Both the position numbers and the translations under genes were made by a program. From contig JACWAG010000493.1 of assembly GCA_014874425.1 (NCBI GenBank), positions 1 to 35,260 of the forward strand: DNA of 35,260 bases, read 5' to 3'. The DNA comes from Syntrophaceae bacterium (GTDB lineage: Bacteria; Desulfobacterota; Desulfomonilia; Desulfomonilales; Desulfomonilaceae). Shown piece after piece: positions 6,158-21,064 of this stretch. Each line of letters starts with the position of its first letter. Positions within the stretch are counted from its first letter, which is position 1. The notes beneath the pieces were generated by a model that was given only the letters and a program-made list of their open reading frames with translations, did no database searches and had not been told where the DNA came from.

Positions 6158-6219
6158 GGCGAACAACGACTCCTAACCATACCCTCTTAGCAATCCTCCA
6201 ATCGGATTGCTTTTTTTTT
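6158..6219 (+). ncRNA. candidate ~60 nt sigma-54-dependent small RNA
   Basis: Bounded by the sigma-54 promoter and a strong intrinsic terminator. The segment contains no ATG or GTG, and its only TTG lies inside the terminator stem. It carries three pyrimidine anti-SD-like motifs: CTCCT 6170-6174, CCCTCTT 6182-6188, CCTCC 6195-6199. The downstream gene has its own sigma-70 promoter after the terminator. Confidence 0.4.
6189..6219 (+). terminator. rho-independent terminator
   Basis: Perfect 8-bp stem AGCAATCC (6189-6196) / GGATTGCT (6204-6211), 7-nt loop TCCAATC, then a run of T through 6219. Confidence 0.75.
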
Positions 6220-6231
6220 GCCACAAAGCGA

Positions 6232-6259
6232 TTGACACGGGGAAATATTTAACTATACT
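6232..6259 (+). promoter_or_regulatory. sigma-70-type promoter of the regulator/catabolic island
   Basis: TTGACA (6232-6237), 16-nt spacer, TATACT (6254-6259). The spacer contains the palindrome AAATATTT. ACTTAA direct repeats at 6265-6270 and 6276-6281 (11-bp phase) overlap the predicted TSS and are a candidate operator. Confidence 0.55.
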
Positions 6260-6300
6260 TTGCGACTTAACAAATACTTAATAAAAAGAGCCCCCTTTCA

Positions 6301-6855
6301 ATGCGCGTCGAACTTGAAATCGGTCGAAGAATTAGAGCTAAAAGATCGATCAATAAACTGACCTTGAAACAGCTCGCCGAAAAGGTTGGTTGTTCTGACG
6401 CTTATTTGTCTCAAATAGAAAATGGTAAGGTCTCTCCTTCTATTTCCAGCCTAAAAAAAATTTCTCATGCCTTACAAGCCAAGATAACGGATTTTTTTGT
6501 CGAAACAGAAGATGAAGACCCTGTCGTGCTCTCTCGTGATCAAAGAGTGACAATCAGTCTGGAGGGATGGAACGCACGAATTGAGTCTTTAATCATAAAT
6601 TCCAAGAATAAAAGAATGCACCCCTTTTTTACTACAATTCAACCCGGCGGAGGATCTCATGGACTTTACAGCCATGTAGGCGAAGAATTTGGGATAGTTC
6701 TGAAGGGTGAATTGCAAATCAATATTGATGACACAATTCACAGAGTGCGACGGAGTGAAAGCTTTTATTACAATTCAAACCAACCTCACAGTTGGACCAA
6801 TCCTGGAAAAACAGACACGGTTGTAGTTTGGGTAATTAGCCCGCCCACATTTTGA
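6301..6855 (+). CDS. XRE-family HTH transcriptional regulator with C-terminal cupin domain
   Basis: HTH_3 signature LTLKQLAEKVGCSDAYLSQIENGKVSPSISSLKKISHAL. The C-terminal half has a cupin-like beta pattern (GEEFGIVLKGELQI...SFYYNSNQPHSWTN). Confidence 0.85.
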   Translation: MRVELEIGRRIRAKRSINKLTLKQLAEKVGCSDAYLSQIENGKVSPSISSLKKISHALQAKITDFFVETEDEDPVVLSRDQRVTISLEGWNARIESLIINSKNKRMHPFFTTIQPGGGSHGLYSHVGEEFGIVLKGELQINIDDTIHRVRRSESFYYNSNQPHSWTNPGKTDTVVVWVISPPTF

Positions 6856-6919
6856 TCAATTAGCATGGGTAAAGCCGTAACTTGAAGGACATTATCCCAT
6901 TTTAAAAAGGAGAGCGACG

Positions 6920-8143
6920 ATGGTTTTAAAAAGCTTCAGGTCGATTTTGATCGTGATGTTAGTCTGTTTCCTGTCTGTTGGCTTTGCGTGCGCCGCGCAG
7001 AAAGCAGCATGGAAAATCGGTGTCGCCGTTTCATTAACCGGGGTGTTTGGTAAGGACGGCAGTCTGGTAAAAGACGCGTACACTCTGTGGCAGGAAACTG
7101 TCAATTCCCACGGCGGTATTAACGGGGCGCCTGTAGAGCTAATTTTCTACGATGATAAAAGCGATCCGGCGACCACCGCAAAACTCACTGAACAGCTCAT
7201 TGTAAGCGACAAAGTGGACCTTCTATTGGGCGGTTTCGGTAGTAGCCAGCTATTCGCCGCGAGTCCGGTTGCGGAAAAATATCAATATCCCTTGATTAGT
7301 GGTGGCGCCAGTTCAAACAAATTGTTTGAGCGTGGCTTCAAATATTATTTTTCTACATTGGGTAAAGCAACTGAAGAGGTAAGAGGTTGTGTCGACATTT
7401 TCTCAGAGGTTACCCCGAAACCTAAGACAGCCGCGATTATCGGAGCGGACATACTTTTCACTTCTCTGGCGTGTGATGGTTTTAAGAAATATTGCCAAAA
7501 AAATGGCATAGAAGTCATCCACTTCGAACTTTTCCCTATGGCTCTGCAGGATTACAACTCTCTGTTGATGAAGGTCAAAAACAAAAAACCCGACGTGTTG
7601 CTTGTTGGTTCGCATCTTCTGGTAGCTATGAAGACCATCAAGGCCATGAAGGAAATAGATTTCAGTCCCAAGGCGGTAGCATTCAGCTACGGGCCGACAG
7701 TCCCAAAGTTTGTAGAAGATCTAAAAGGTGACGCCAATTATGTAATCGCTGCGTCCGAATGGACCCCCAATATGCCATATTCTGGAAAGGTATTTGGAAA
7801 AGCTAGCGATTTTAACCAGCTATACATAAAGCGTTTTAATCGTAGGCCTGATTACGTTGAGGCCGCTGCCGCGGGTGGGGCTGTAGCTCAGCAGGAAGTT
7901 CTGGAAGAATTGGGATTGAAGCCGCCTCTAAGCAAAGAAAATCGAATTAAGATAATGGAAGCCCTACATAAAGACAAATTTGAAACTTTCTACGGCAAAA
8001 TCCAATTTGGAGCTGATGGGGCTAACGAAGCTCATCCTCCTGTAGCGGTGCAAATCCAGTCGGAAAAACTGGAAAACGTTTTTCCCCTGGAATATGCTGA
8101 AGCCAAAATCCTATATCCATTTAAGCCCTGGAAAGAACGTTAA
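6920..8143 (+). CDS. ABC transporter substrate-binding protein, Leu/Ile/Val-binding (HAAT, Peripla_BP_6) family
   Basis: Signal peptide (...FLSVGFACAAQ), IGVAVSLTG..G start typical of the family, about 400 aa, AAGGAG RBS. The ligand cannot be read from the sequence. Confidence 0.85.
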   Translation: MVLKSFRSILIVMLVCFLSVGFACAAQKAAWKIGVAVSLTGVFGKDGSLVKDAYTLWQETVNSHGGINGAPVELIFYDDKSDPATTAKLTEQLIVSDKVDLLLGGFGSSQLFAASPVAEKYQYPLISGGASSNKLFERGFKYYFSTLGKATEEVRGCVDIFSEVTPKPKTAAIIGADILFTSLACDGFKKYCQKNGIEVIHFELFPMALQDYNSLLMKVKNKKPDVLLVGSHLLVAMKTIKAMKEIDFSPKAVAFSYGPTVPKFVEDLKGDANYVIAASEWTPNMPYSGKVFGKASDFNQLYIKRFNRRPDYVEAAAAGGAVAQQEVLEELGLKPPLSKENRIKIMEALHKDKFETFYGKIQFGADGANEAHPPVAVQIQSEKLENVFPLEYAEAKILYPFKPWKER

Positions 8144-8158
8144 TTCAAGAACAGAGTG

Positions 8159-8193
8159 GGATTGGCGTCTTTTAAGCTGCCAATCCTCCTTTT
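8159..8193 (+). terminator. intra-operon hairpin after the binding-protein gene (partial terminator/attenuator or mRNA stabiliser)
   Basis: GGATTGGC (8159-8166) / GCCAATCC (8179-8186), 12-nt loop, followed by the weak T-tract TCCTTTT. Confidence 0.35.
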
Positions 8194-8276
8194 AACCACA
8201 ATGTAATTAATGGGAACGGGCGTCAAAATTAAATTCGCGCTCACCCTTTAAATATGTGAACTTAAGAAAGATTCAA

Positions 8277-9791
8277 ATGGAAGTCGAAAAACTAAAAAAC
8301 TACGTGAATGGAAAATGGGTCGATTCCAAAACAGGATCATTTTTCCCCACCGTCAATTCCCTAAATGGTCAAACAATAACTCTATGCCCGGATTCTACTA
8401 TTGACGAAGTTGATCTGACTATTTCTCTCGCCAAAAAGGCTTTCCAATCCTGGCGAAATACAATCCCGACCAGACGCGCGGATATTCTTTACACATTGCG
8501 GGAAAAACTACTCGCCGCTCGGAACGAATTAGCGGAAATAATAACGCTTGAACATGGAAAAACACTCTCCGACGCCAAAGGCGAATTAATGCGAGCGATA
8601 CAGTATGTGGAACATCCTTGCGGTATTCCGGAACTGCTAAAGGGCGATCACAGTGAAGACGTCGGAACAGGAGTTGACGAATATTATATAAGAGAGCCCT
8701 TGGGTGTTTTTAGTCTACTGCCTCCTTTCAACTTTCCGGCCATGATAGCCCTTTATTTCACTTGGCCTATTGCGTGCGGAAACACGGTTGTGGTGAAACC
8801 AAGCGAACTATGCCCCATGACTATGCTCAGAATAACCGAATTAGCCGAAGAGTCGGGTTTACCACCGGGAGTGTTGAATATAGTTAACGGTGGTCCACGT
8901 GTAGGCGAGAGGCTTTGCGTCCATCCGGAAATCGAGGGAGTTACATTTGTCGGGTCTTCAAAGGTCGCCGAAATGGTCTACAGAACATCGACTTCTCATG
9001 GAAAACGCGCCCAGTGTCAAGGTGGCGCAAAAAATCATGTCCTTGTCATGGAAGACGCGAACCTTGATGAGGCGATCCCGAACATAGTCAACTCTTGTTT
9101 CGGTCACACGAGCCAGAGGTGTTTCGCTGTGTCAAACGTGTTGGTCGATGAGAAGATTTATGATTCGTTCGAAGAAAGATTCATAGCTGCCTGTCAGAAA
9201 CTTAAACTGGGTGATGGACACGATCCAAAAGTCAACATGGGCCCGGTTGTGAATCAGCGAGCGCTAGATCGTCTCTACGAATCTGTCGATAAAGCGCTGG
9301 AACAAGGGGCGAAGTTGATTCTGGACGGTAGAAATCCAAAAATAGAAGAGTTTCCTGATGGGCTATTTTTTGGTCCCACTCTTTTGGAAGCTGAACCAGA
9401 TAATTTCGCGTTTAGAGAGGAGATATTCGGTCCAGTCAGGTGTGTCAAAAGCGTCAAGAGCTTGCAGGAAGCGATTAATATTATAAATTCAAGCATGTAC
9501 GGACATACTGCAGTTATATATACTCAAAACGGTGGTTGGTCCCGTCACTTCATAAGGAACGTAAATACAGGCCAAATTGGGGTCAATGTTGGCACACCCG
9601 CTCCAATAGCCTTTTATCCTGTTGGTGGCCGAAAAATATCTTTTTACGGGTCACACCGCGGTCGCGCTAACGACGCTATAGATTTCTACACGGACAAAAA
9701 GGTGATTGTAACCAAATGGAGTTCTTATGTTGAAGAACCGGCTTCAAGCAAATCAACAGAAATAAATGAACTAAACTCAGTCCTGTTTTAA
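8277..9791 (+). CDS. aldehyde dehydrogenase, methylmalonate-semialdehyde dehydrogenase (CoA-acylating)-like
   Basis: ALDH fold with N-terminal NYVNGKWV, FNFPAMI, GGAKNH (the MMSDH-type variant of the ELGGK motif), and catalytic Cys in SQRCFAVS. ATG 8277 preferred over GTG 8256. Confidence 0.85.
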   Translation: MEVEKLKNYVNGKWVDSKTGSFFPTVNSLNGQTITLCPDSTIDEVDLTISLAKKAFQSWRNTIPTRRADILYTLREKLLAARNELAEIITLEHGKTLSDAKGELMRAIQYVEHPCGIPELLKGDHSEDVGTGVDEYYIREPLGVFSLLPPFNFPAMIALYFTWPIACGNTVVVKPSELCPMTMLRITELAEESGLPPGVLNIVNGGPRVGERLCVHPEIEGVTFVGSSKVAEMVYRTSTSHGKRAQCQGGAKNHVLVMEDANLDEAIPNIVNSCFGHTSQRCFAVSNVLVDEKIYDSFEERFIAACQKLKLGDGHDPKVNMGPVVNQRALDRLYESVDKALEQGAKLILDGRNPKIEEFPDGLFFGPTLLEAEPDNFAFREEIFGPVRCVKSVKSLQEAINIINSSMYGHTAVIYTQNGGWSRHFIRNVNTGQIGVNVGTPAPIAFYPVGGRKISFYGSHRGRANDAIDFYTDKKVIVTKWSSYVEEPASSKSTEINELNSVLF

Positions 9792-9794
9792 AAA

Positions 9795-10667
9795 ATGTAT
9801 ACCGTATTCGCTCAAACCATAATTAATGGACTCCTGTTAGGAGGAGTTTATGCCGCATATTCAGCGGGATTTTCCCTGATATTTGGTGTCATGGGCGTAG
9901 TTAATCTCGCCCATGGTGAATTGATAATGTTAGGGGCTTTCACCTCTTACTGGTTGTTCGCTTATTTCAATTTGGATCCCTATTTAAGCGCGCCGTTCGC
10001 AATGGTTTTTCTGTTTCTCTTTGGATATGTAGTTCAAAAATACATCATAAATCGGGTCATTGGGCAGCCTCATATAATGAGCTACATCCTTACGTTCGGT
10101 CTCCACTTGATGATAGCCAACATAGCGATCAAAATGTGGACCCAGGATTTCCGGTCCATAACCACATCCTATTCCGGGGCTAATGCGGCAATCTGGGGTC
10201 TAAACATACCACTTGCAAGATTGGTAACCTTCATGGTGGCGCTCCTTGTGACATGGGTACTATGGTTTTTCCTGATGCGAACAGAGACGGGTCGGGCCAT
10301 CCGGGCTACCGCTCAAGACAAGGAAGTAGCCAGGTTAATGGGGGTAGATATCCGAAATATCTACGCCATAACATTTGGGCTTGGCGCGGCTATAACAGGA
10401 CTCTCCGGATCAGTGATGAGCCCCTTTGTAATTATATCCCCCGAAATGGGTCTCGAATACACAATTATTGCATTCTGTGTTGTGGTGTTGGGCGGAATGG
10501 GATACATGCCCGGAGCGCTCGTCGGAGGATTGGTTCTTGGAGTGGCGCAGTCTCTGGCGGCTACCTATCTCAATGCAGGGGTTTCTGTAGCCATAACGTT
10601 TATAATTCTATTTATTATGCTCGTCATTTGCCCGAAAGGGATCTTGGGCAAAGGTAGTGTAGCGTGA
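9795..10667 (+). CDS. livH: HAAT-family ABC transporter permease (LivH type)
   Basis: 290 aa polytopic protein with the family N-terminus QTIINGLLLGGVYAAYSAGFSLIFGVMGVVNLAHGE. Symbol is family-level only. Confidence 0.9.
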   Translation: MYTVFAQTIINGLLLGGVYAAYSAGFSLIFGVMGVVNLAHGELIMLGAFTSYWLFAYFNLDPYLSAPFAMVFLFLFGYVVQKYIINRVIGQPHIMSYILTFGLHLMIANIAIKMWTQDFRSITTSYSGANAAIWGLNIPLARLVTFMVALLVTWVLWFFLMRTETGRAIRATAQDKEVARLMGVDIRNIYAITFGLGAAITGLSGSVMSPFVIISPEMGLEYTIIAFCVVVLGGMGYMPGALVGGLVLGVAQSLAATYLNAGVSVAITFIILFIMLVICPKGILGKGSVA

Positions 10668-10694
10668 CATGCTTTAACAATAACCGAGGGCCGG

Positions 10695-11645
10695 ATGAAT
10701 TTTAAAATCGACAGGATAATTTTGATCATGTTCCTTGGTATTACTGCCGCGCTGGCCTTCCTGCCTAATTTTGTCGAATCTGAATACCTCTTGAGGTTGA
10801 TCACTGTTGTGATCTTTTGGATCGGGATTGCCGGTTGTTGGAACATGATGAGCGGATACACCGGGTATATTGATTTCGGGCCTGTGGTCTATTTTGGAAT
10901 AGGTTCCTATGTTGTCGCCATAGCCATGACCAAGTATGGGATTCCTTTTTTCCCAAGCCTTTTCATTTCCGGCGTAATATCGGGTTCAGTGGCTTTTTTG
11001 GTTGGAATACCAACCTTGCGTTTGAAAGGGGCATATTTTGCAATCGCCACGTTTGCCTTCGCTGAGGCTATGAAACAAATTACACTGGAATTTGATCGTA
11101 CATTCAGTGTTTCATTTTTTCAAGGTAGTGACGGTATAACTCTTCCGATCAGCGGCCATGACAATTCATTTTTCTTCTATTGCGTTTTACCGGTAACCTT
11201 TTTGGTAATGCTAGCTCATTACTTTATTGAACATTCAAAATTCGGATATGGACTGAAAGCCATAAAGGAAGCTGAAACCGCCGCCGAAATAAGTGGGGTC
11301 AATACTACAGCCAACAAACTGGGCGCTTATGTAAGCAGCGCTTTTTTTCTAGGTTTGTTTGGAGCTATAGAGGCTTACTGGATTACCTATATAACCCCTT
11401 CCGATGTTTTCAACATTCAAAAAACAGTTCAGATGGTAATCATGACACTATTGGGAGGTATGGGGACATTTTTGGGGCCGGTGATAGGAGCGACTTTTCT
11501 GACTCTGATTTCCGAGTCGCTGGGCGCGCGATTTGTCGAATACTACCTCATTATGATTGGCGGGATCATAATTGTGGCTATTTTGATAATGCCCAACGGA
11601 ATAATTGGGAGCTTGAAGATACGCAAGAAATTAAGGTTTATTTAA
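10695..11645 (+). CDS. livM: HAAT-family ABC transporter permease (LivM type)
   Basis: 316 aa polytopic protein; GYTGYIDFGPVVYFGIGSY and LRLKGAYFAIATFAFAE are typical LivM motifs. Confidence 0.9.
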   Translation: MNFKIDRIILIMFLGITAALAFLPNFVESEYLLRLITVVIFWIGIAGCWNMMSGYTGYIDFGPVVYFGIGSYVVAIAMTKYGIPFFPSLFISGVISGSVAFLVGIPTLRLKGAYFAIATFAFAEAMKQITLEFDRTFSVSFFQGSDGITLPISGHDNSFFFYCVLPVTFLVMLAHYFIEHSKFGYGLKAIKEAETAAEISGVNTTANKLGAYVSSAFFLGLFGAIEAYWITYITPSDVFNIQKTVQMVIMTLLGGMGTFLGPVIGATFLTLISESLGARFVEYYLIMIGGIIIVAILIMPNGIIGSLKIRKKLRFI

Positions 11646-11682
11646 TCTATGCAATAAATACAATAGCTTATTCGGGCACAAA

Positions 11683-12420
11683 ATGACTGGTTTGGAATGC
11701 AGGAAAGTAAGTATGAAATTTGGGGCCCTTGCCGCGGTCCAGATGGTGAGTTTTTCCCTGAATCCTGGTGAGATTCTGGGAATGATAGGACCCAACGGGG
11801 CTGGAAAAACTACTCTTCTCAATTGTGTAATTGGTATCCATAAACCTACTTCTGGGAGAATTTTCCTCAATCAAATCGACATAACTGGCATGAAACCCCA
11901 TAAAATTTGCCGCATGGGTTTAGCAAAAACATCCCAAATTATGGAGCCATTTATGGCGATGACCGTATTTGAAAACGTTCTCGTGGGCGCCTTGCATGGT
12001 GGTCGGATGAGAATGCGCCTAGCAACTGAAAAAACGGAGAAGGTCATAGAGCTAGTAGGACTTAAACAATACGCTTACAAGCTTTCAGGGTCTATTCCTG
12101 TGCCGGCGCGCAGACGGCTCGAACTCGCCAGGGCTTTAGCGAGCGGCGCCAATATCCTTCTTCTTGACGAAAACATGGCAGGCTTAAACCCTCATGAAAT
12201 CGATGAAGCGCTTGAGATTCTAAAAAAGATCCGAAACTCAGGAAAATCTCTAATAGTTATAGAACATATCATGAGGGTTGTAATGGGTATTTCAGATCGA
12301 ATCATCGTATTAAATTACGGCTCCAAAATTGCTGAGGGTTTTCCAGAAGAAGTTGTAAATGATGAATCGGTAATAAAAGCGTACCTGGGAGATAAGCTTA
12401 CATCTCTTAAAGTAGCTTGA
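11683..12420 (+). CDS. livG: ABC transporter ATP-binding protein (LivG type)
   Basis: Walker A GPNGAGKTT, Walker B LLLDE (signature loop degenerate), C-terminal IKAYLG typical of LivG. Confidence 0.9.
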   Translation: MTGLECRKVSMKFGALAAVQMVSFSLNPGEILGMIGPNGAGKTTLLNCVIGIHKPTSGRIFLNQIDITGMKPHKICRMGLAKTSQIMEPFMAMTVFENVLVGALHGGRMRMRLATEKTEKVIELVGLKQYAYKLSGSIPVPARRRLELARALASGANILLLDENMAGLNPHEIDEALEILKKIRNSGKSLIVIEHIMRVVMGISDRIIVLNYGSKIAEGFPEEVVNDESVIKAYLGDKLTSLKVA

Positions 12421-13148
12421 GAACAAATAAAATGAACGAACCCCTTCTAAAAGTAGAAAAAATTGATGTTTCGTATCGCGATGTTCAGGTTCTTCATGAA
12501 ATTGATCTAGAGGTTTATCCATCTGAGATTGTTACTGTAATAGGCCCTAACGGGGCTGGGAAAAGCACTTTGCTTAGTGCAATAATGGGTTTTGAAACCC
12601 CCAACAACGGCTCAATAACTTTTAATGGGAAGAAAATAACCGGGACCCCACCGGAAGAAACAGTAAAATTGGGTATGACTATAGTACCGGAGGGGGCCCG
12701 GGTCTTCACGGAGATGACAGTTCTGGACAATCTGAAAATGGGTTCATACATAAAATCATCACGTGTTCATCGAAAATCATCATTTGAAATGGTTTTCAAT
12801 TTCTTTCCCCGTTTACATGAAAGAATAAAGCAGAAAGGCGGCACCTTGAGTGGAGGTGAACGCCAGATGCTGGCAATAGGAAGGGCGTTAATGTCCAGAC
12901 CCTCTTTGTTGCTCCTGGATGAACCTTCTCTTGGATTGGCCCCATTGCTTGTTACTAAAGTATTCGAAACCATAGTTGAAATCGCAACGACTGGTTTAAC
13001 TGTGTTGTTAGTTGAGCAGAATGTTCATTTTTCCCTGGAAATTTCCAAAAGAGCATACGTGCTTGAGAACGGACGGATTGTAAAACACGGCTTTTCTGAA
13101 GAGCTTATGAACAACGATTATATTAAAAAATCCTATCTGGCGCTCTAG
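12417..13148 (+). CDS. livF: ABC transporter ATP-binding protein (LivF type)
   Basis: Walker A GPNGAGKST, signature LSGGERQ, Walker B LLLDEPS. TTG 12417 overlaps the livG stop (TTGA). ATG 12432 (MNEPLLKVE...) is an equally plausible start. Confidence 0.9.
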   Translation: MRTNKMNEPLLKVEKIDVSYRDVQVLHEIDLEVYPSEIVTVIGPNGAGKSTLLSAIMGFETPNNGSITFNGKKITGTPPEETVKLGMTIVPEGARVFTEMTVLDNLKMGSYIKSSRVHRKSSFEMVFNFFPRLHERIKQKGGTLSGGERQMLAIGRALMSRPSLLLLDEPSLGLAPLLVTKVFETIVEIATTGLTVLLVEQNVHFSLEISKRAYVLENGRIVKHGFSEELMNNDYIKKSYLAL

Positions 13149-13173
13149 AAAATTTGCCTCGAGGTTTCCCATT

Positions 13174-13701
13174 ATGAATCAAGAAAACCCACAGGATGAA
13201 CTAGCTGATCTGGAAATTTCTTTCACATTGAATGACTCTCAAGTTCGTGTTTCGATAAAACCATGGGAAACTGCCTTAGAAACTCTTCGAAACAAATTCG
13301 GGCTTACGGGAGTAAAAGAAGGCTGTGGAATTGGTGAATGTGGGGCCTGCACAATAGTCATGGACGGAAAAGCCGTTAATGGATGTCTAATATTGGCGGC
13401 TCAACTCGATGGGCGAACAGTCGAAACAGTCGAAGGTCTGTCTTCGAATGGGACCATGAACTACCTACAAAAAGCCTTTCTGGATAAAGGCGGTGTGCAA
13501 TGCGGTTTTTGTACTCCAGGAATGCTGATGTCAGCCAAGGCCTTGCTGGATGAATGCGATCAGCCATCGAAAAAAGTAATCACAAACGCTTTATCAGGCA
13601 ATTTATGTCGGTGCGCTGGTTACGTTCAAATAGTCGATGCGGTGGAAGAGGCGGCGCTAATAAAGTCAAAAGACGCAGAGGACCAAGCTGTCAATAGATG
13701 A
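13174..13701 (+). CDS. molybdenum hydroxylase small subunit, 2x[2Fe-2S] (CoxS/XdhA-N family)
   Basis: CGIGECGACTIVMDGKAVNGC (plant-type cluster) and CGFCTPGM...CRCAGY (second cluster). Confidence 0.9.
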   Translation: MNQENPQDELADLEISFTLNDSQVRVSIKPWETALETLRNKFGLTGVKEGCGIGECGACTIVMDGKAVNGCLILAAQLDGRTVETVEGLSSNGTMNYLQKAFLDKGGVQCGFCTPGMLMSAKALLDECDQPSKKVITNALSGNLCRCAGYVQIVDAVEEAALIKSKDAEDQAVNR

Positions 13702-14558
13702 GAATTAATTTCAAATACTTAAGACCACATTCTCTGAATGAGTGTTTGGCGGTTCTTGCTACACATGGGGACGAGTCTGCGATATTGGCCGGTGGCACTG
13801 ATCTGATGATTTCTCTCAGAAGTGGTTCACGGACACCTAAGTTTGTCCTGGATATTTCGAGACTAAGTGAAATTCGCTCTGTTGAACAACACGCCGAAGT
13901 CATCAAGATAGGAGCCATTCTGACATATTCAGAATTGATCGCTCATCCTTTAATAGTCAAGACTTTTCCAGCTCTTAGCGCCGCAATGAGCTGCGTAGGG
14001 AGCCTTCAAATCAGAAACGTCGGGACTTTGGGAGGCAATATAGCGAACTCTTCGCCTGCTGCGGATAGTATTCCCCCAATGATGATCCACGACGCTCAGG
14101 TCATGATTCAAAAAGTTAATTCTGTCAGAATAGAAAAGCTGGAGAAACTCATTGTGGGGCCATCTTCAAACACTTTAGAGCCTGATGAATTGATTACCGG
14201 GATAATCTTGAAGCCCGTTGAAAGCGCTTATAAACAAAGTTACCGGCGTATAGCCCGACGCAAGAGCCTTTCCATAGCAAGAGTCAATATGGCGGTATCA
14301 GCAAAATTGGATGCCAATGGACTCATAGAGGACGTTAGAATTTCGGTGGGTTCCGTGGCCCCAACTCCGCTGCGAATTAAAAAAATTGAAGATTCTCTAA
14401 TAGGACTGAAACCTGAATCCAAATTTATTCAGGAAACTGGTGAGTTGGTTGCCCGTCACATTGTGGACCTTGTTGGAGTTCGCCATTCCACTGAGTATAA
14501 ACGGCCGGCTATAGCGGGCCTGGCTATAAAATGCTTAGAGGACGTGTTCATTGACTGA
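13698..14558 (+). CDS. molybdenum hydroxylase FAD-binding medium subunit (CoxM/XdhB family)
   Basis: ILAGGTDLM and TLGGNIANSSPAAD motifs. Its ATG overlaps the small-subunit stop (ATGA). Confidence 0.85.
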   Translation: MRINFKYLRPHSLNECLAVLATHGDESAILAGGTDLMISLRSGSRTPKFVLDISRLSEIRSVEQHAEVIKIGAILTYSELIAHPLIVKTFPALSAAMSCVGSLQIRNVGTLGGNIANSSPAADSIPPMMIHDAQVMIQKVNSVRIEKLEKLIVGPSSNTLEPDELITGIILKPVESAYKQSYRRIARRKSLSIARVNMAVSAKLDANGLIEDVRISVGSVAPTPLRIKKIEDSLIGLKPESKFIQETGELVARHIVDLVGVRHSTEYKRPAIAGLAIKCLEDVFID

Positions 14559-16848
14559 CACAAACTTTAGCCAAAGCTCTTCATCAATCGGATTGAATAT
14601 TTCGCGTGTCGGAGCGGAAGAAAAGCTTCAGGGTAAAGCGCTATTTGCAAACGATGTCGTTTTGAAAAACGCCCTATGCCTGAAAGCCCTAAGAAGTGAA
14701 CTGCCTCACGCTGTAATTGAATCAATAGAAGTTCAAAGGGCTATAAATTCGCCCGGATGTGTAGCCGTTTTCACAGGTAGAGATATACCTGGAAAAAACA
14801 GGTATGGCCTCATCAACAAAGACCAACCACTTCTTGCTGATACTAAAGTTAGATTTGTCGGTGATCCAGTCGCTCTGGTGGCCGCAGTCTCCGAGGACGC
14901 GGCGCAGACCGCCCTCTCCAAAATCAAGGTCGAATACAAGGAATTAGCCGCTGTTTTTGATCCGGAAGAAGCGCTTGCGCCAGGCGCTCCATTGATCCAT
15001 GAAAAAGGCAATCTTTTGGGGAAACGATTAATAAAGAAAGGTGTCCCTGATTTGGCGTTTCAAAAAGCGGATATAGTCATTGAACGGAAGTACCAGACGA
15101 CGTTCGTCGAACACGCTTATCTTGAACCGGACGCCGGAGCCGCATTTGTAGACCAAAGTGGGCGAATAACAATATATGCGTCTACTCAAAACCCCCATTA
15201 TGACCAGGTTGATGTGGCTAAGCTGTTAGGACTTCCCGAAAACATGGTTCGAATCATTCAAACAGCAACAGGCGGAGGCTTTGGATCAAAACTTGACATC
15301 AATACACAGGGGTTCCTCGGGCTGGCGGCTTATCTTTTGAAAAGACCCGTCAAAATGACCTATAGCCGTGAAGAGGCTTTCCTTTGCACATCCAAAAGAC
15401 ACCCATTAAAGATAGTGTACAAATCAGCGGCCAATAAAGATGGGAGACTACTGGCGATAGATGTCAAAATAATTGGCGATACGGGCGCTTACGCGTCCTA
15501 CGGACTTGCTGTTGTGACTCGTTCCGCAGTTCACGCGACTGGTCCGTATGAGGTCCCAAATGTCCACGTCGAGTCTGTTTTCGCGTATACCAACAATTCT
15601 ATTGCAGGCGCAATGAGAGGTTTTGGTGTGCCTCAGATGGCTTTTGCGCATGAGTCGCAAATGGACTTACTTGCTGAAGCATTGGCTGTCAGCCCACTTG
15701 AAATAAGGGCTAGGAATATTCTAAGATTGGGGTCAACTACCGCTACCAAACAGACGCTTACGGCCAGTGTTGGAATAGGGGCGTGCATTGAAGCTATAGC
15801 TCCACATTACGAACAAATTAAAAAATCCATTGAGCTAACAAAAACGAAAAATCTCCGCGGGGTAGGATTGGGTTGCATGATGTACGGTATAGGCAATACA
15901 GGTGTCCAAAACCCGTCTACCGCGCAAGTCGAATTACAACCTGACGGTACGATAACATTGTTCAGTGGAGCGGCTGATATAGGGCAAGGCTCCTCCACCG
16001 TTTTAACTCAAATTGCAGCCACTGAACTTGGTCTGGACTCGAACAAAATCGACCTTGTAACTGCCGATACCGGAATGACGACTTCTGCAGGGGCCACATC
16101 TGCAAGCAGACAAACCTATATCTCCGGAAATGCCGTATTGGATGCTGTCTCAAAACTCAAGGAAATGCTTCTTACTGAAGCCGCTACCATGCTCAGGACT
16201 GGACGAGCCTCCCTGACTTTAAAAAATGGCAGAATCGAAAATATTTCAAACAACGCACTATTTGTCACTCTGGAACAGGTTGTAAGAAAGGCTGTAACGG
16301 AGGGAATACCACTAAAATGGCAGGGTTTTTTTGATCCCGATACTACCCCTCTGGACCCTGATACAGGTGAAGGCAATCCTTACGCGACTTTTGCTTTCGC
16401 AGCTCAACTTGCAGAAATTGAAATCGATGTTCTCACAGGAGAGGTCACAGTCACAAAAGTTGTTGCGGCTCATGATGTAGGAAAGGCTATAAACCCTGAT
16501 TGTGTAAAGGGCCAAATTTATGGTGGGGTCGCAATGGGATTAGGTTTTGCCCTAATGGAAGAATTTGCGCCGGGGAAAACAGTCTCCCTTAAAGATTACC
16601 ATGTGCCTACGTTTTCGGATATGCCCGATGTACATGCCATAATAGTTGAAGACGCTGAACCAACGGGTCCCTACGGAGCAAAGGGAGTGGGTGAACCAGC
16701 GTTAATACCTACCGCTCCGGCGATACTTAACGCGATAGCTGACGCTTTGGGATCAAGAATTTATTTTTTGCCGGCCAACCTGGAACGGATCATGAAAGCA
16801 ATCCATTCAGGGACCTCAAAACCACTTAAAATAAAACTGATGGTGTAA
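14551..16848 (+). CDS. molybdenum hydroxylase large molybdopterin-binding subunit (xanthine dehydrogenase/aldehyde oxidase family)
   Basis: 765 aa with GGGFGSK, MRGFGVPQ and C-terminal GVGEPALIP (catalytic Glu context). TTG start overlaps the FAD-subunit stop by 8 nt. The substrate cannot be called from the sequence alone. Confidence 0.9.
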   Translation: MTDTNFSQSSSSIGLNISRVGAEEKLQGKALFANDVVLKNALCLKALRSELPHAVIESIEVQRAINSPGCVAVFTGRDIPGKNRYGLINKDQPLLADTKVRFVGDPVALVAAVSEDAAQTALSKIKVEYKELAAVFDPEEALAPGAPLIHEKGNLLGKRLIKKGVPDLAFQKADIVIERKYQTTFVEHAYLEPDAGAAFVDQSGRITIYASTQNPHYDQVDVAKLLGLPENMVRIIQTATGGGFGSKLDINTQGFLGLAAYLLKRPVKMTYSREEAFLCTSKRHPLKIVYKSAANKDGRLLAIDVKIIGDTGAYASYGLAVVTRSAVHATGPYEVPNVHVESVFAYTNNSIAGAMRGFGVPQMAFAHESQMDLLAEALAVSPLEIRARNILRLGSTTATKQTLTASVGIGACIEAIAPHYEQIKKSIELTKTKNLRGVGLGCMMYGIGNTGVQNPSTAQVELQPDGTITLFSGAADIGQGSSTVLTQIAATELGLDSNKIDLVTADTGMTTSAGATSASRQTYISGNAVLDAVSKLKEMLLTEAATMLRTGRASLTLKNGRIENISNNALFVTLEQVVRKAVTEGIPLKWQGFFDPDTTPLDPDTGEGNPYATFAFAAQLAEIEIDVLTGEVTVTKVVAAHDVGKAINPDCVKGQIYGGVAMGLGFALMEEFAPGKTVSLKDYHVPTFSDMPDVHAIIVEDAEPTGPYGAKGVGEPALIPTAPAILNAIADALGSRIYFLPANLERIMKAIHSGTSKPLKIKLMV

Positions 16849-16886
16849 AACAGGATATTACGATCAAGACCAAGGAGTCGTCATTT

Positions 16887-18044
16887 ATGTCTAAAACGCT
16901 TATCAAGAACATAGGAACATTGATTTCCGGAAATATCATAAATCCTAAAATAAACGCTGACAGTATATTGATAGCTGACGGGAAAATAAGCGCTATAGGA
17001 TCGGTTTCGGAGTTAGCTGACGGAGTTGATTTAGTAATAGACGCGAATGGAACAACTGTTGCCCCAGGCCTTATTGATTCACACTGTCACGTGGTCCTTG
17101 GTGATTATACTCCTAGACAAAAACAAATGGACTTTATTGAAAGTGAAACTCATGGAGGAGTAACTACAATAATATCAGCCGGTGAAGTCCATTTGCCGGG
17201 ACGACCAACAGATCCTGCCGGGACCAAGGCCCTGGCTATCCTGGCCGCAAAATCCTTTACAAATTTCCGACCCGGAGGCGCCAAGGTAATTGGAGGTTCG
17301 GTAATCCTTGAAAAAGGCCTTGTCGAAAATGATTTTGAAGAAATGGCTCGTGAAGGTGTACGAGTAGTTGGTGAAATAGGGTTGGGCACGGTCAAATTTC
17401 CAGTGGATGCCGTGCCAATGGTAAAATGGGCCAGGAAAAACAATATGACGATATTGATGCACACAGGCGGGACCTCAATACCCGGAAGCGACACTGTTAC
17501 AGCCGAACAAGTCATAGCTACCGACCCAGATGTCGCCTGTCACGTTAATGGCGGTCCTACCGCTATGTCCTCGGGTGAAATCAGAAAACTCATTAATGAC
17601 ACTAAATACGCAATTGAGCTGGTTCACTGTGGTAATCCCAAAGCCCTTCTAGACGCTGTAAATATGGGGCTGGATAGCAAAGCGCTTTCCAGGTTCATTA
17701 TAGGCAATGACGCTCCTTCAGGCACTGGTGTCATACCACTAGGGATTCTAAGGGTAATTTGCATGGTAGCGTCCCTGACTGCCGTGACACCCGAGCAAGC
17801 CATTTGTATGGCTACCGGCAATACTGCAAAAGTGTTCAAGCTTGATACAGGCGTCGTTCAGATAGGGGCGCCCGCTGATCTCATAATGTTGGACAGCCCC
17901 ATGGGATCAGTTGGGAAGTCCGCTTTAGACGCCATAAAAGTTGGTGATATTCCTGGGGTCTCCATGGTGATGATCGACGGAAAAATCCACGTGAAGACAA
18001 GCAGGAATACCCCTCCTGCGGCTAAAAAACCGTCATTCAATTGA
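16887..18044 (+). CDS. enamidase-like amidohydrolase (1,4,5,6-tetrahydro-6-oxonicotinate hydrolase family)
   Basis: 385 aa. It appears collinear with my recollection of Eubacterium barkeri enamidase: MSKT.IKNIG start, DSHCHV metal motif, DY.PRQK.MDFI, HGGVTT, MHTGGTSIPGS.TVTA, NGGPTA, GNDAPSGTG.IPLGILR, CMATGN, C-terminal SRNTPPA. AAGGAG RBS. Needs alignment to confirm. Confidence 0.8.
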   Translation: MSKTLIKNIGTLISGNIINPKINADSILIADGKISAIGSVSELADGVDLVIDANGTTVAPGLIDSHCHVVLGDYTPRQKQMDFIESETHGGVTTIISAGEVHLPGRPTDPAGTKALAILAAKSFTNFRPGGAKVIGGSVILEKGLVENDFEEMAREGVRVVGEIGLGTVKFPVDAVPMVKWARKNNMTILMHTGGTSIPGSDTVTAEQVIATDPDVACHVNGGPTAMSSGEIRKLINDTKYAIELVHCGNPKALLDAVNMGLDSKALSRFIIGNDAPSGTGVIPLGILRVICMVASLTAVTPEQAICMATGNTAKVFKLDTGVVQIGAPADLIMLDSPMGSVGKSALDAIKVGDIPGVSMVMIDGKIHVKTSRNTPPAAKKPSFN

Positions 18045-18078
18045 AATTGGCATTTAACAACTATGAACGCGGGCATAT

Positions 18079-19578
18079 ATGAAAATTGATAGCCTCAAAT
18101 GTGTGGGATGCGCCGATTGCTTGCCGATTTGTCCTCAATCGGCAATCAAAATCAGGAATAGGAAAGCCGTTATAGACGAAAAATGTTGCGATTGCCGCGC
18201 CTGCCTCCGGGTGTGCCAAAACGACGCCATTTGCGCAGAATATATTCCACCGGAACAGTACGTTCAATGCGAGGCCTGCCCAATAAGATGCAAAATAAAA
18301 GAAGGTTTTCTAGGCGCCTGTCAAAGATACCAAAACAAAGACGGCGCTCTTGAGCGAACAATCAAACTCAAAAAACTTTCCGATGTAAAGAGCATGGTGG
18401 GAGAAGACTGGAGGGAGGAAATCCGCCGTCCCCTTATAACAGCGATTGGGGCTGGCACAACATATCCGGATTGTAAACCTGCGCCACACATCATCCAAAA
18501 CAAGGTTAATGGAATTGATGTGGTAACAGTCGTCACAGAGGCGCCATTGAGTTACTCAGGTGTAAAGATTAAGGTCGATACGGATAGGATGTTGGGTGAG
18601 GAAGGGTCCTCGATCTCTTATCATCGGAAAAAAGTCGGGCATCTAACCACTGAAGAATATGGTTCCAAAATGTTGTCTTTGGGGGGAGTAAACCTTCTTA
18701 CAGGCCCGGACGGTCTTTTTGTGGCCAGAGTAGTCGCAGACGTAGCGAATCGGAAAAAAATCCGGCTTAAGATTAGAAATGGGGCCGAATTGGATCTTCA
18801 GGTTGGTGGTCCGCCGCTAATTAACGGGGAAAAAGATTACTTGATGCGAGTGGGATGTGGGAGCGCGACGCTTGGATTATTCGCCGAAATGTTAAAAAAA
18901 GTCGCTGATGAAGTAATAATCCTGGATTCTCATTTGACCGGGTTAATGAGTGAACATACTGCCGGAGTTTATGTTGGAACCGCCCCTTCAGGGGTTAAGC
19001 TCAAATTTTCCAGAAGCACGCCCGGTAGATATTTTGGAGATCACGGTAGTGGATGGGGAGGAACGTCAATCATAAATCCGCTGGAAATAATTGAAAGCGT
19101 GGATTCCAAAATCGCCAAGCCTGGAATGTTGATTTTGATAACAGAAACAACCGGAAGACAAGCCGCCATGTTTCAATTGACATCAACAGGTTCTCTAAAC
19201 GAAATAGCAATAACTGTCAAAGCCAAAGAGGCTGTTCAGACTATAGCGGAGACATGTGAAAATTCCCGCGTATCGGCGATTTATTGCGGCGGTTCTGGTG
19301 GGAGCGCCCGTGCAGGAGTAACTAAGTACCCGATTAGGTTGACATATGCGATTCATACAAACAAAGCTAAATTAACTGTAGGTGGAGCGCCTACTTTTGT
19401 TCTACCGGGAGGCGGAATCAACTTCATGGTCGATGTTGAAAAAGTCGTGCCGGGAGCTTTCAGTTGGACCCCAACTCCTGCTACTATTTGCCCCATTGAG
19501 TATACCATGACACTTGAAGACTACATAAAAATGGGAGGGCACAAAGAGGCGATCAAACCTTTTATTAAAGGGGACTAA
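18079..19578 (+). CDS. 6-hydroxynicotinate reductase-like iron-sulfur protein
   Basis: The N-terminus has two ferredoxin-type motifs (CVGCADCLPICP, CCDCRACLRVCQ) plus an extra CEACPIRC...C cluster, on a ~500 aa body. It sits directly downstream of the enamidase homologue. Assignment rests on domain pattern, size and synteny. Confidence 0.6.
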   Translation: MKIDSLKCVGCADCLPICPQSAIKIRNRKAVIDEKCCDCRACLRVCQNDAICAEYIPPEQYVQCEACPIRCKIKEGFLGACQRYQNKDGALERTIKLKKLSDVKSMVGEDWREEIRRPLITAIGAGTTYPDCKPAPHIIQNKVNGIDVVTVVTEAPLSYSGVKIKVDTDRMLGEEGSSISYHRKKVGHLTTEEYGSKMLSLGGVNLLTGPDGLFVARVVADVANRKKIRLKIRNGAELDLQVGGPPLINGEKDYLMRVGCGSATLGLFAEMLKKVADEVIILDSHLTGLMSEHTAGVYVGTAPSGVKLKFSRSTPGRYFGDHGSGWGGTSIINPLEIIESVDSKIAKPGMLILITETTGRQAAMFQLTSTGSLNEIAITVKAKEAVQTIAETCENSRVSAIYCGGSGGSARAGVTKYPIRLTYAIHTNKAKLTVGGAPTFVLPGGGINFMVDVEKVVPGAFSWTPTPATICPIEYTMTLEDYIKMGGHKEAIKPFIKGD

Positions 19579-19647
19579 AGTCTGAACAAATGGGAAGCCG
19601 AAATTCTTGTTCTTGGTGATCAGAGCGTTCTTGTCGATTGCGGACCG

Positions 19648-20436
19648 ATGAGGATGATGATTGAGGGTTTTGAAGGGCCTCAGCCGCGTCCGGATTTGTG
19701 TGTAAAGGCCGCAAACTTTTCAATAAAAATCTTGGAAGAAGTCGCTGCGGCCAAGGCCCAACTAAGTAAAACGGCAATCACTTCTGACCCTCCATCAGGT
19801 GATGGTGTTTCATTCAAAATGTGGCAGGCCACCAGAAGGATTGGCGCTCATGATTTGACACCCATGGCCACAGTCGCAGGAGCGGTTGCAGACGCTACAG
19901 CAGATTTCTTGCACGGGTTTGGAATGACCAGATCTATTGTAAATAACGGTGGTGACATTGCAATTCGACTAACAGGCGAAGAATTTGTCAACGTTGGTGT
20001 CCGATGTGATATTGACAGGTCTGAAATTTCTCACCGTATATCAGTTTCACAAGCCTCTGGTGTTGGAGGAATTTGTACTAGTGGGCTGGGCGGCCGAAGT
20101 TTCACTCGAGGCATAGCGTCCGCTGTTACTGTATTGGGGGTAACGGCGGCGATAGCTGACGCTGCGGCCACGTCGGTAGCCAACGCGACATATATCGATC
20201 ACCCAAATATCATCCGCATAAATGCTGATGAATTGGACCCACTAACTGATCTCAAAGGTATCAAAATCACATGCGGTGTGGGAGACCTGGAAATGGAATT
20301 CATCGATGAGTGTTTTATCAAGGCGCTTAACTATGCGGACACTCTTGTGTATCAGGGAGCAATAGTTGGGGCTGTGGTCTCAATTAAAGGACGGACACGC
20401 CTAACTAACGGAATAAAATCTATGATGTTAGCTTAG
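19648..20436 (+). CDS. UPF0280 / ApbE-superfamily-like protein (uncharacterised)
   Basis: Ala/Gly-rich alpha/beta protein (TPMATVAGAVAD, NNGGDIA, TSGLGGRSFTRGIA), recalled as the UPF0280 pattern. The frame is open from the upstream stop at 19576-19578, and the upstream residues (EAEILVLGDQSVLVDCGP) look protein-like, so the true start may be non-canonical and upstream of ATG 19648. Confidence 0.5.
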   Translation: MRMMIEGFEGPQPRPDLCVKAANFSIKILEEVAAAKAQLSKTAITSDPPSGDGVSFKMWQATRRIGAHDLTPMATVAGAVADATADFLHGFGMTRSIVNNGGDIAIRLTGEEFVNVGVRCDIDRSEISHRISVSQASGVGGICTSGLGGRSFTRGIASAVTVLGVTAAIADAAATSVANATYIDHPNIIRINADELDPLTDLKGIKITCGVGDLEMEFIDECFIKALNYADTLVYQGAIVGAVVSIKGRTRLTNGIKSMMLA

Positions 20437-20485
20437 TTTACGGGGAATGGCATTTTTCTTAAATGAGAGAAGAAGGGGAACTATC

Positions 20486-21064
20486 ATGGAAATCAGGAAA
20501 ATTTGCACAGTAGTTGAAGAAACTCACACCGAAATGGGAAAAAACGTAACACCTCCATCCAAACGAGCGGCCGCAATAGCAGTCATCAAAAATCCCTTTG
20601 CAGGCCGTTACCAGGAGAATCTGTCAGAGTTAATTGAAACAGGCGAAAAATTGGGAGAGCTTCTTGGGAAGAAGGCCCTTGAAGCGCTAGGTATAAATTC
20701 TGACAAAGCTGAGAGTTACGGCAAGGGAGCAATCGTTGGTTCTCAAGGTGAACTGGAACACGCTGCCGCCATTTTGCATCCAAAACTGGGCACACCTTTT
20801 AGGGAAGCCCTGGGTGGTGGTAAAGCCTTGATCCCATCTGCGAAGAAAATTGGTGGGCCAGGCACGGAACTGGATGTTCCGATTCATTATAAGGACGCCG
20901 CTTTTGTAAGGTCACATTTTGACGCGATGCCAATCCGAGTTCAGGACGCTCCTCGTGGTAACGAGATCGTAGTGGCTCTTGTGGTGACCGATTCAGGAAG
21001 ACCTTTGGCTAGGGTTGGTGGGCTCAAAAAGGAAGAAGCCAAAAAGGAAGACGGCCTGAGATAA
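20486..21064 (+). CDS. 'amino acid synthesis' family (PF06684/DUF1185-like) protein, function unknown
   Basis: About 190 aa starting MEIRKICTVVEE, with AAAIAVIKNPFAGRY, YGKGAIVG..GE.EHAAAILHPKLG and FVRSHFDAM as recalled for this family. GAAGGGGA RBS 7 nt upstream of ATG 20486 (track start 20447 rejected). Confidence 0.6.
   Translation: MEIRKICTVVEETHTEMGKNVTPPSKRAAAIAVIKNPFAGRYQENLSELIETGEKLGELLGKKALEALGINSDKAESYGKGAIVGSQGELEHAAAILHPKLGTPFREALGGGKALIPSAKKIGGPGTELDVPIHYKDAAFVRSHFDAMPIRVQDAPRGNEIVVALVVTDSGRPLARVGGLKKEEAKKEDGLR

Follow-up and report, generated by a model that had tools for sequence, protein, structure and literature searches.

The subject of this study is an aldehyde dehydrogenase (ALDH) gene at positions 8277–9791 of a 35,260-nucleotide stretch of DNA from a Syntrophaceae bacterium, referred to here as the window. 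From about 6260 to 21064, the + strand of the window reads as one operon, in which the gene is accompanied by homologues of nicotinate catabolism genes (Table 1). We conclude that the encoded protein is probably a CoA-acylating, decarboxylating enzyme of the methylmalonate-semialdehyde dehydrogenase (MSDH) family, also called AlDH6, recruited to anaerobic nicotinate catabolism. The predicted reaction is conversion of 2-formylglutarate to glutaryl-CoA and CO2. The substrate is deduced from gene linkage and gene replacement and the product from the chemistry of the family; the downstream fate we infer. With a little less assurance, we also favour a wider interpretation. A widespread B12-independent pathway of anaerobic nicotinate breakdown would use a dedicated MSDH-family enzyme to convert 2-formylglutarate to glutaryl-CoA and CO2, and this arrangement would have arisen at least twice. 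Enamidase, the DUF1185 protein and the ALDH would form the core trio, in uncultured sulfate reducers, syntrophs, Chloroflexota, Bacillota, Actinomycetota and some archaea.

Enamidase hydrolyses 1,4,5,6-tetrahydro-6-oxonicotinate to 2-formylglutarate and NH3. Chemically, 2-formylglutarate is a 2-substituted malonate semialdehyde. To our knowledge, anaerobic breakdown of nicotinate is described in molecular detail only for Eubacterium barkeri, which uses a long lower pathway dependent on coenzyme B12. Azorhizobium has a glutarate route for which we know of no genes assigned after ring opening since 1992.

Linkage of the aldehyde dehydrogenase to enamidase

Linkage was assessed at 80 loci, with one genome per species, by searching 10-kb flanks with all 14 cluster proteins. 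An ALDH of the same clade as the window protein was encoded at 49 loci. Enamidase was found at 34 of these, usually together with 6-hydroxynicotinate reductase (Hnr), the molybdenum enzyme, AA_synth and an ApbE-like gene. A further 14 clade loci end inside the cluster or just short of it. Hence, enamidase is present at 34 of the 35 loci with adequate flanks. At loci encoding canonical MmsA-like enzymes (39–44% identity), enamidase or Hnr was detected in 0 of 31. The original prediction was to fall if orthologues never occurred with enamidase or Hnr; the opposite was seen.

The same linkage was evident in seven more contigs found by exact protein sequence (L084–L087 and L174–L176, representing five distinct clusters). 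These include the most divergent clade members sampled, at 54–55% identity. Hosts of the enamidase-linked genes are Thermodesulfobacteriota, Chloroflexota (Anaerolineales), Bacillota, Actinomycetota and two archaeal metagenome-assembled genomes (MAGs; Thermoplasmatales and Hydrothermarchaeum).

Clusters L086/L087, L175 and L176 have no ferredoxin-type Hnr; enamidase, AA_synth and ALDH are still kept together. Hence, the tightest partner of the ALDH is enamidase, which is predicted to make its substrate, 2-formylglutarate. A luciferase-like (Bac_luciferase) gene occupies the place of Hnr in these clusters (L086/L087 13668–14672, L175 6483–7475, L176 4902–5900). This gene may encode an alternative 6-hydroxynicotinate reductase.

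Absence of the E. barkeri lower pathway

Two E. barkeri-type clusters, L088 and L089, were used for comparison. One was found via an enamidase 97% identical to 2VUN and one is in Acetobacterium bakii. Their gene order is LysR, Hnr, ApbE-like, Hgd, NdhFSLM, transporter, enamidase, AA_synth and then the lower-pathway genes. The latter encode, in order, a B12-binding mutase, a PrpF-type isomerase, a MutL-type reactivase, a lyase, Hmd and two dehydratase subunits. Both clusters carry Hgd, Mgm, Mii, MutL, Dml, Hmd and DmdAB, and neither has an ALDH.

In tblastn searches with L088 genes, upper-pathway genes were detected in both the window and its relatives, at 32–61% identity. None of the L088 lower-pathway genes (Hgd, Hmd, B12 mutase, reactivase, isomerase, dimethylmalate dehydratase and lyase) was found in the window by the same method. 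Clade loci likewise lack them by tblastn, except for an Hgd-like gene in L037 and L048. This gene content fits the bypass of B12 chemistry envisaged in the original prediction. Because the lower-pathway genes are missing, the ALDH is the only enzyme left for the product of enamidase. Judged by gene content, it is the only candidate in these clusters for consuming 2-formylglutarate.

The Hgd-like gene lies directly after the ALDH gene in L048 (11526–12422) and one gene further on in L037 (12210–13115; top PDB match 3CKY). Such pairing resembles the classical mmsA–mmsB arrangement.

Hgd of L088 matches PDB entry 3CKY, a 2-(hydroxymethyl)glutarate dehydrogenase, with an E value of 6e-184. The next solved relatives are 3-hydroxyisobutyrate dehydrogenases. 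In valine catabolism, 3-hydroxyisobutyrate dehydrogenase is the partner of MSDH. Hence, the enzyme that deals with 2-formylglutarate in E. barkeri is a paralogue of a methylmalonate-semialdehyde enzyme. Alhapel and colleagues reportedly found in 2006 that E. barkeri 2-formylglutarate is reduced by Hgd, not decarboxylated.

Family membership and catalytic residues

The protein had been described as an ALDH with methylmalonate-semialdehyde dehydrogenase motifs. Both motifs are present, GGAKNH at residues 249–254 and SQRCFA at residues 279–284. Against TIGR01722, the model for CoA-acylating methylmalonate-semialdehyde dehydrogenase, the protein scores 483.4 bits; the curated cut-off is 448.5. The ten best PDB matches are all MSDH or ALDH6A1. 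Of these, 1T90 ranks top (E 2e-117), and the next ALDH family begins at E 3e-75.

A 2025 review of the superfamily sets out the features that define AlDH6, using 1T90 numbering. Cys284 and Asn153 are present, and Arg107 and Arg283 bind the substrate carboxylate (PMC12041015). The two arginines are proposed to help bicarbonate leave the enzyme-bound malonyl-type thioester, and the beta-carboxylate is released from this thioester before transfer to CoA (PMC12041015). L250 replaces the catalytic Glu; the thioester is not hydrolysed and must pass to CoA (PMC12041015).

Equivalent residues were counted in an alignment of 48 clade sequences, taken from species-representative genomes plus the window and at least 52% identical to the window protein. 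Cys282, Asn152 and Arg281 are present in all 48 sequences and Arg106 in 47. The position of the catalytic Glu is occupied by Gln248 in 48 of 48. On sequence, the full MSDH catalytic set is present and the window ALDH should work like an MSDH. Marks of hydrolytic DavD/GabD-type enzymes (Glu268 and ELGGK) are absent, the window motif being QGGAKNH. Models for succinate-semialdehyde dehydrogenase (SSADH) give the protein 290 bits against a cut-off of 646.

A distinct branch of the MSDH family

The clade was compared with a canonical set of 33 MSDH-like proteins, including 1T90, 4ZZ7 and a Virgibacillus enzyme. In a neighbour-joining (NJ) distance tree, the 48 clade sequences split from the canonical 33 with 100/100 bootstrap support. 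Hence, in the phylogenetic check suggested earlier, the protein falls in a clade of its own that excludes the bona fide MSDHs 1T90 and 4ZZ7. When eight Glu-bearing ALDHs were added as an outgroup, all MSDH-like proteins grouped in 60 of 60 replicates and the window clade was intact in 59 of 60. Identity averages 68% among clade members and 41% between them and the canonical enzymes. An exhaustive search of 1.8 billion representatives (a 50%-identity library) returned one relative at 524 bits, with canonical MSDH-like proteins at no more than 411 bits; a multi-domain protein ranks between the two. These comparisons indicate that the window ALDH is not an ordinary MmsA but belongs to a distinct branch of the MSDH family.

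Thirty-one positions hold a fixed residue in the clade and other residues in the canonical enzymes. Trp, found in 33 of 33 canonical enzymes, becomes Tyr160. Similarly, Phe in 33 of 33 becomes Val449. Directly after the catalytic Cys, Met or Leu is replaced by Phe283. We take Tyr160, Phe283 and Val449 to be equivalent to ALDH2 positions 177, 303 and 465, presumably residues of the substrate channel. Basic residues have also been gained; Arg388, Arg461, Arg463 and His410 are invariant and position 452 is Arg or Lys. A further marker of the clade is Asn287. With smaller aromatics and more positive charge, the enzyme would be suited to a larger substrate that bears a second carboxylate.

A second MSDH-like lineage in enamidase clusters

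Scanning metagenomes with an enamidase alignment as seed yielded 80 more loci, with a bias to relatives of the window's enamidase. Among these, 27 loci extend over at least 10 kb. Nine carry the window ALDH clade, 15 carry a second MSDH-like lineage and three end where the ALDH is expected. We refer to the second lineage as type 2 (loci L094, L100, L101, L106, L110, L128, L129, L136, L140, L151, L158, L164, L171 and L173). Type-2 enzymes are 32–39% identical to the window protein and have the motifs NGNGKNH and GQRC. They retain the Cys, the Asn and both Arg residues, with Asn at the Glu position. The methylmalonate-semialdehyde dehydrogenase model is their best NCBIfam match, with scores of 345–401 bits that are below the TIGR01722 cut-off. 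The genes lie inside Ndh-Ena-Hnr clusters (for example L101, L158 and L173), adjoining Ndh or AA_synth genes, and are common in Desulfobacterales, Dethiobacteria and Bacillota MAGs. Because a second MSDH-like lineage recurs in enamidase clusters, the idea that these pathways need MSDH chemistry is strengthened.

Type 2 and the window clade share six sites that differ from canonical enzymes: Asn287, His410, Ser/Thr411, Val/Leu449, Lys/Arg452 and Arg463. We rejected the number of shared sites as evidence of convergence; a control comparison gives 5 against 6. A sister relationship between the two lineages was also unsupported, appearing in 2 of 60 replicates of the rooted NJ tree. Type 2 differs from the window clade in being below the TIGR01722 cut-off, in not grouping as its sister in that tree and in occurring outside nicotinate clusters as well, at L172.

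In L172 (10001–17270), a type-2 ALDH 76% identical to that of L158 is encoded away from any nicotinate cluster. Around it are genes for a TAXI-TRAP transporter, an Hgd-like dehydrogenase (top PDB match 3CKY), AcnX, a UxaA-like dehydratase and LarA. L172 may specify a route to 2-formylglutarate, or an analogue, from a hydroxymethyl-dicarboxylate.

Proposed mechanism

In our model, the operon would import nicotinate, which the molybdenum enzyme would hydroxylate. Hnr would reduce the hydroxylated product, and enamidase would open the ring to yield 2-formylglutarate and ammonia. The C1 carboxylate of 2-formylglutarate, beta to the aldehyde, would be held by Arg106 and Arg281. Cys282 would then attack the aldehyde, forming a thiohemiacetal with Asn152 as the oxyanion hole, and hydride would pass to NAD(P)+. 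The resulting 2-carboxyglutaryl thioester would lose CO2 or bicarbonate, and the glutaryl group would pass to CoA, giving glutaryl-CoA. Because the water-activating Glu is replaced by Gln248, the glutaryl group would leave only via CoA. Enzymes encoded elsewhere would oxidise and decarboxylate glutaryl-CoA to crotonyl-CoA, a route in use among anaerobes of this kind. In this way, one ALDH would replace the seven-gene B12-dependent lower pathway of E. barkeri.

Alternative explanations

Several observations weigh against a decarboxylating 2-formylglutarate dehydrogenase. Aldehydes that lack the carboxylate, such as propionaldehyde, are also oxidised by the MSDH scaffold (PMC12041015). Hence, conservation of the arginines is no proof that the reaction is decarboxylating. 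A role for the clade-specific residues in binding a second carboxylate is conjecture, and the trees that define the clade are simple distance trees. L033 is the sole locus with long flanks that has the ALDH, the molybdenum enzyme and AA_synth without enamidase and Hnr. A search for expression matched the ALDH gene in DNA metagenomes only and in no RNA data set. Finally, glutaryl-CoA dehydrogenase, glutaconyl-CoA decarboxylase and CoA-transferase genes were found neither in the window nor in any 10-kb flank. Hence, the onward path of glutaryl-CoA is the weakest point of our proposal.

In L033, enamidase and Hnr are missing between the molybdenum-enzyme genes and AA_synth (11623–15980). The gap could result from deletion or from a problem of MAG assembly.

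All open reading frames (ORFs) of 51 loci were clustered to seek a conserved downstream enzyme. The recurring extra families were TRAP genes, isochorismatase, a few uncharacterised families and antisense shadow ORFs. The uncharacterised families are carried by gene order in closely related loci. Thiolase occurs in a single case, L048, and neither acyl-CoA dehydrogenase nor decarboxylase was detected among the scanned ORFs.

The main alternative is a two-step process. Here, CO2 would be lost first, spontaneously or by action of another cluster protein, to give glutarate semialdehyde; the ALDH would then only oxidise this to glutaryl-CoA. Carbon would flow as in the Azorhizobium route, except that a thioester is the end product. 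In Azorhizobium, decarboxylation and oxidation are said to be separate, and AA_synth, a conserved protein of unassigned function, is always beside enamidase. The acceptance of propionaldehyde by MSDHs (PMC12041015) also fits. However, both arginines that hold the beta-carboxylate are retained throughout the clade, and the clusters contain no other conserved gene that could encode the decarboxylase. AA_synth was rejected for this role; the same gene is present in E. barkeri-type clusters, where 2-formylglutarate is reportedly reduced by Hgd. We consider the two-step process unlikely.

Marginally less credence is given to degradation of another N-heterocycle or nicotinate analogue, with the ALDH acting on the corresponding 2-formyl-dicarboxylate. 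Such a substrate would be compatible with the moderate identity to E. barkeri-type enzymes (enamidase 57%, Hnr 48%, NdhL 48%) and with the type-2 lineage of non-nicotinate cluster L172, which has the Hgd-like dehydrogenase, AcnX and the UxaA-like dehydratase. It is at odds with the full-length match of the window enamidase to 2VUN, the nicotinamidase-like genes of several clusters and an upper-pathway gene set equal to that of the characterised pathway.

The protein could also be an ordinary MmsA/IolA that happens to be encoded beside nicotinate genes and acts on methylmalonate or malonate semialdehyde arising in the catabolism of valine, beta-alanine or inositol. Although the TIGR01722 cut-off is passed and public annotation says the same, this is very improbable. 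Not only does the protein fall in a separate, fully supported clade with the canonical residues Trp177 and Phe465 replaced, but its enamidase linkage (34 of 35 loci, in at least five phyla) is not shared by the 31 canonical loci. In addition, no valine, inositol or beta-alanine genes were found near clade loci. Hydrolytic oxidation to free 2-carboxyglutarate or glutarate, followed by a CoA transferase as in Azorhizobium, can be given equally little weight: glutarate is a reported Azorhizobium intermediate (PMC3511419), but the water-activating Glu is Gln in every clade member, AlDH6 cannot hydrolyse its thioester without that Glu (PMC12041015) and the clusters have no CoA-transferase gene as a conserved member.

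Organisation of the operon

Features of the operon are listed in Table 1. On one side it is flanked by the housekeeping genes def, fmt, htpX and rsmB, and on the other by unrelated genes.

Table 1. Positions of the nicotinate operon features in the window.
Feature	Position	Strand	Basis or remark
Terminator-like hairpin	6189–6211		Ends preceding unit
Promoter-like site, TTGACA-16-TATACT	6232–6259	+	11/12, consensus match only; precedes regulator gene
XRE-type HTH and cupin regulator, PuuR-like architecture	6301–6855	+	Domain matches
Periplasmic binding protein (Peripla_BP_6), Liv-type ABC importer	6920–8143	+	
MSDH-like CoA-acylating ALDH, enamidase-linked clade	8277–9791	+	Predicted decarboxylating 2-formylglutarate dehydrogenase
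LivH, LivM, LivG and LivF-type genes	9795–10667, 10695–11645, 11683–12420, 12417–13148	+	BPD_transp_2 (two), ABC_tran (two)
Three-subunit molybdenum hydroxylase	13174–16848	+	2Fe-2S 13174–13701, FAD 13698–14558, Mo 14551–16848
Enamidase	16887–18044	+	PDB 2VUN E 1e-141, full length; 57% identity to L088 enamidase
Hnr homologue, N-terminal 2x[4Fe-4S] ferredoxin domain	18079–19578	+	48% identity to E. barkeri-type Hnr
UPF0280 / ApbE-like protein (PF27030)	19648–20436	+	
AA_synth / DUF1185 protein	20447–21064	+	Function not assigned

The ALDH ORF can start at GTG 8256 or ATG 8277 and ends at 9791. Initiation at ATG 8277 gives a protein of 504 amino acids. Because this is also the length of most homologues, and because a purine-rich stretch precedes ATG 8277 only, we consider this start likelier than GTG 8256. 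The closest relative of the protein is 98% identical, from a Syntrophaceae MAG, followed by proteins from Desulfomonilaceae and Desulfomonile MAGs. Homologues are called methylmalonate-semialdehyde dehydrogenase or plain aldehyde dehydrogenase in public records. The gene occurs in metagenomes from mine drainage, soil, sediment and hot springs.

The original prediction noted a position between binding-protein and permease genes as unusual for an enzyme gene. The gene does lie between the Peripla_BP_6 gene and the first permease gene, but only the closest relatives share this arrangement (L001–L012, L036 and L044). In other relatives, the ALDH gene is located after the last ABC gene, ahead of enamidase or at the head of the operon. 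Hence, the intra-transporter position was ruled out as a functional clue and, by this comparison, is local gene order that carries no functional weight. Between the binding-protein and ALDH genes, an 8-bp inverted repeat (GGATTGGC / GCCAATCC, with a 12-nt loop) at 8159–8186 is followed by a short T run. Partial termination at this site may favour expression of the binding protein over that of the downstream genes.

The HTH/cupin protein probably acts as sensor and regulator of the operon, and its gene is kept ahead of the cluster in 21 related loci. Uptake of nicotinate is presumably the task of the Liv-type ABC importer. Proteobacterial nic clusters similarly include a "putative nicotinate ABC transporter" (PMC3511419). 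In Syntrophorhabdus-like and other clusters, a TRAP (DctPQM) system replaces the Liv-type importer; it is encoded upstream of the ALDH in L015, L018, L023, L024, L030, L031, L035 and L049, and at 11590–14897 in L173. Uptake systems are interchangeable, with the enzymes retained. Isochorismatase-family (nicotinamidase-like) genes are found in L028 (16290–16964), six other loci of the window clade and L175 (8110–8751). Their presence within several clusters suggests that nicotinamide also feeds the pathway.

The molybdenum hydroxylase is a nicotinate dehydrogenase homologue, with 49%, 32%, 48% and 45% identity to NdhS, NdhF, NdhL and NdhM of L088, respectively. Its molybdenum subunit is one fused L+M protein of 765 amino acids, whereas the E. 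barkeri-type equivalent (L088 5971–8224) is split into 425 and 330 amino acids. For Hnr, the Sulfitobacter homologue is annotated by NCBI as "6-hydroxynicotinate reductase". The UPF0280 ApbE-like gene adjoins Hnr in most clusters that have Hnr, and is also present at L088 2824–3672 and L090 15497–16357. Because E. barkeri Hnr carries a covalently bound flavin, the UPF0280 protein is a candidate flavin transferase for maturation of Hnr. A gene of the MttB family (trimethylamine methyltransferase-like) follows Hnr in two actinobacterial or unassigned clusters (L039 12513–14018, L174 11713–13161).

AA_synth/DUF1185 lies beside enamidase in all cluster types: window, E. barkeri, alphaproteobacterial and the luciferase-like variant. 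Copies are found at L088 10703–11284, L090 14342–15504 (two copies), L086 12953–13546 and in L174–L176. The protein is among the best conserved of the cluster, with 53–79% identity in related loci, and structural-genomics structures are available (2QTP, 3BYQ). It probably takes part in the ring-opening step.

Discussion

A literature search on 2-formylglutarate, enamidase, Hnr, and nicotinate with MSDH found no paper in the library searched that gives an ALDH this step. The enzyme family and the upper pathway are already known; the predicted substrate and the lower branch that it implies are new. If correct, our proposal fills the Azorhizobium-type gap after ring opening with a single enzyme. 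Turnover of vitamin B3 and the pyridine ring in anoxic sediments, soils and mine drainage would be joined to the glutaryl-CoA route of anaerobic aromatic degraders. The MSDH family would gain a third class of physiological substrate. An annotation rule also follows from the prediction: an 'MmsA' adjoining enamidase is probably not MmsA.

Compared with the E. barkeri cluster, the window has the same nicotinate dehydrogenase, Hnr, ApbE-like protein, enamidase and AA_synth. The difference lies downstream. E. barkeri has Hgd, Hmd, a B12-dependent 2-methyleneglutarate mutase with its reactivase, methylitaconate isomerase and dimethylmalate dehydratase/lyase, whereas the window has the ALDH instead.

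Kitts and colleagues are said to have described, in 1992, decarboxylation, oxidation to free glutarate and succinyl-CoA-dependent activation as separate steps in Azorhizobium. That route and the one predicted here share the upper pathway, and both split a C6 dicarboxylic aldehyde into a C5 glutaryl unit and CO2. They would differ in that free glutarate is reportedly formed and then activated with CoA in Azorhizobium, whereas a thioester is predicted for the window. In Azorhizobium and Bradyrhizobiaceae, the conserved cluster covers steps one to three and also encodes an ABC transporter and two uncharacterised proteins; the route continues via glutarate (PMC3511419). A Sulfitobacter plasmid encodes enamidase, two AA_synth proteins, UPF0280, Hnr, the molybdenum enzyme and an ABC transporter. 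Unlike the window cluster, alphaproteobacterial nic clusters such as this one have no ALDH.

With MmsA, IolA and ALDH6A1 (EC 1.2.1.27 and 1.2.1.18; 1T90 of B. subtilis), the window enzyme shares fold, length, the Cys and Asn residues, both Arg residues and the lack of a catalytic Glu. It differs in overall sequence (about 41% identity) and in having Tyr and Val for the invariant Trp177 and Phe465 (ALDH2 numbering). The genomic partner of the window clade is enamidase, in place of the valine, inositol or beta-alanine genes expected for a canonical MSDH. MSDH substrates bear H or methyl, whereas the predicted substrate of the window enzyme bears a carboxyethyl group.

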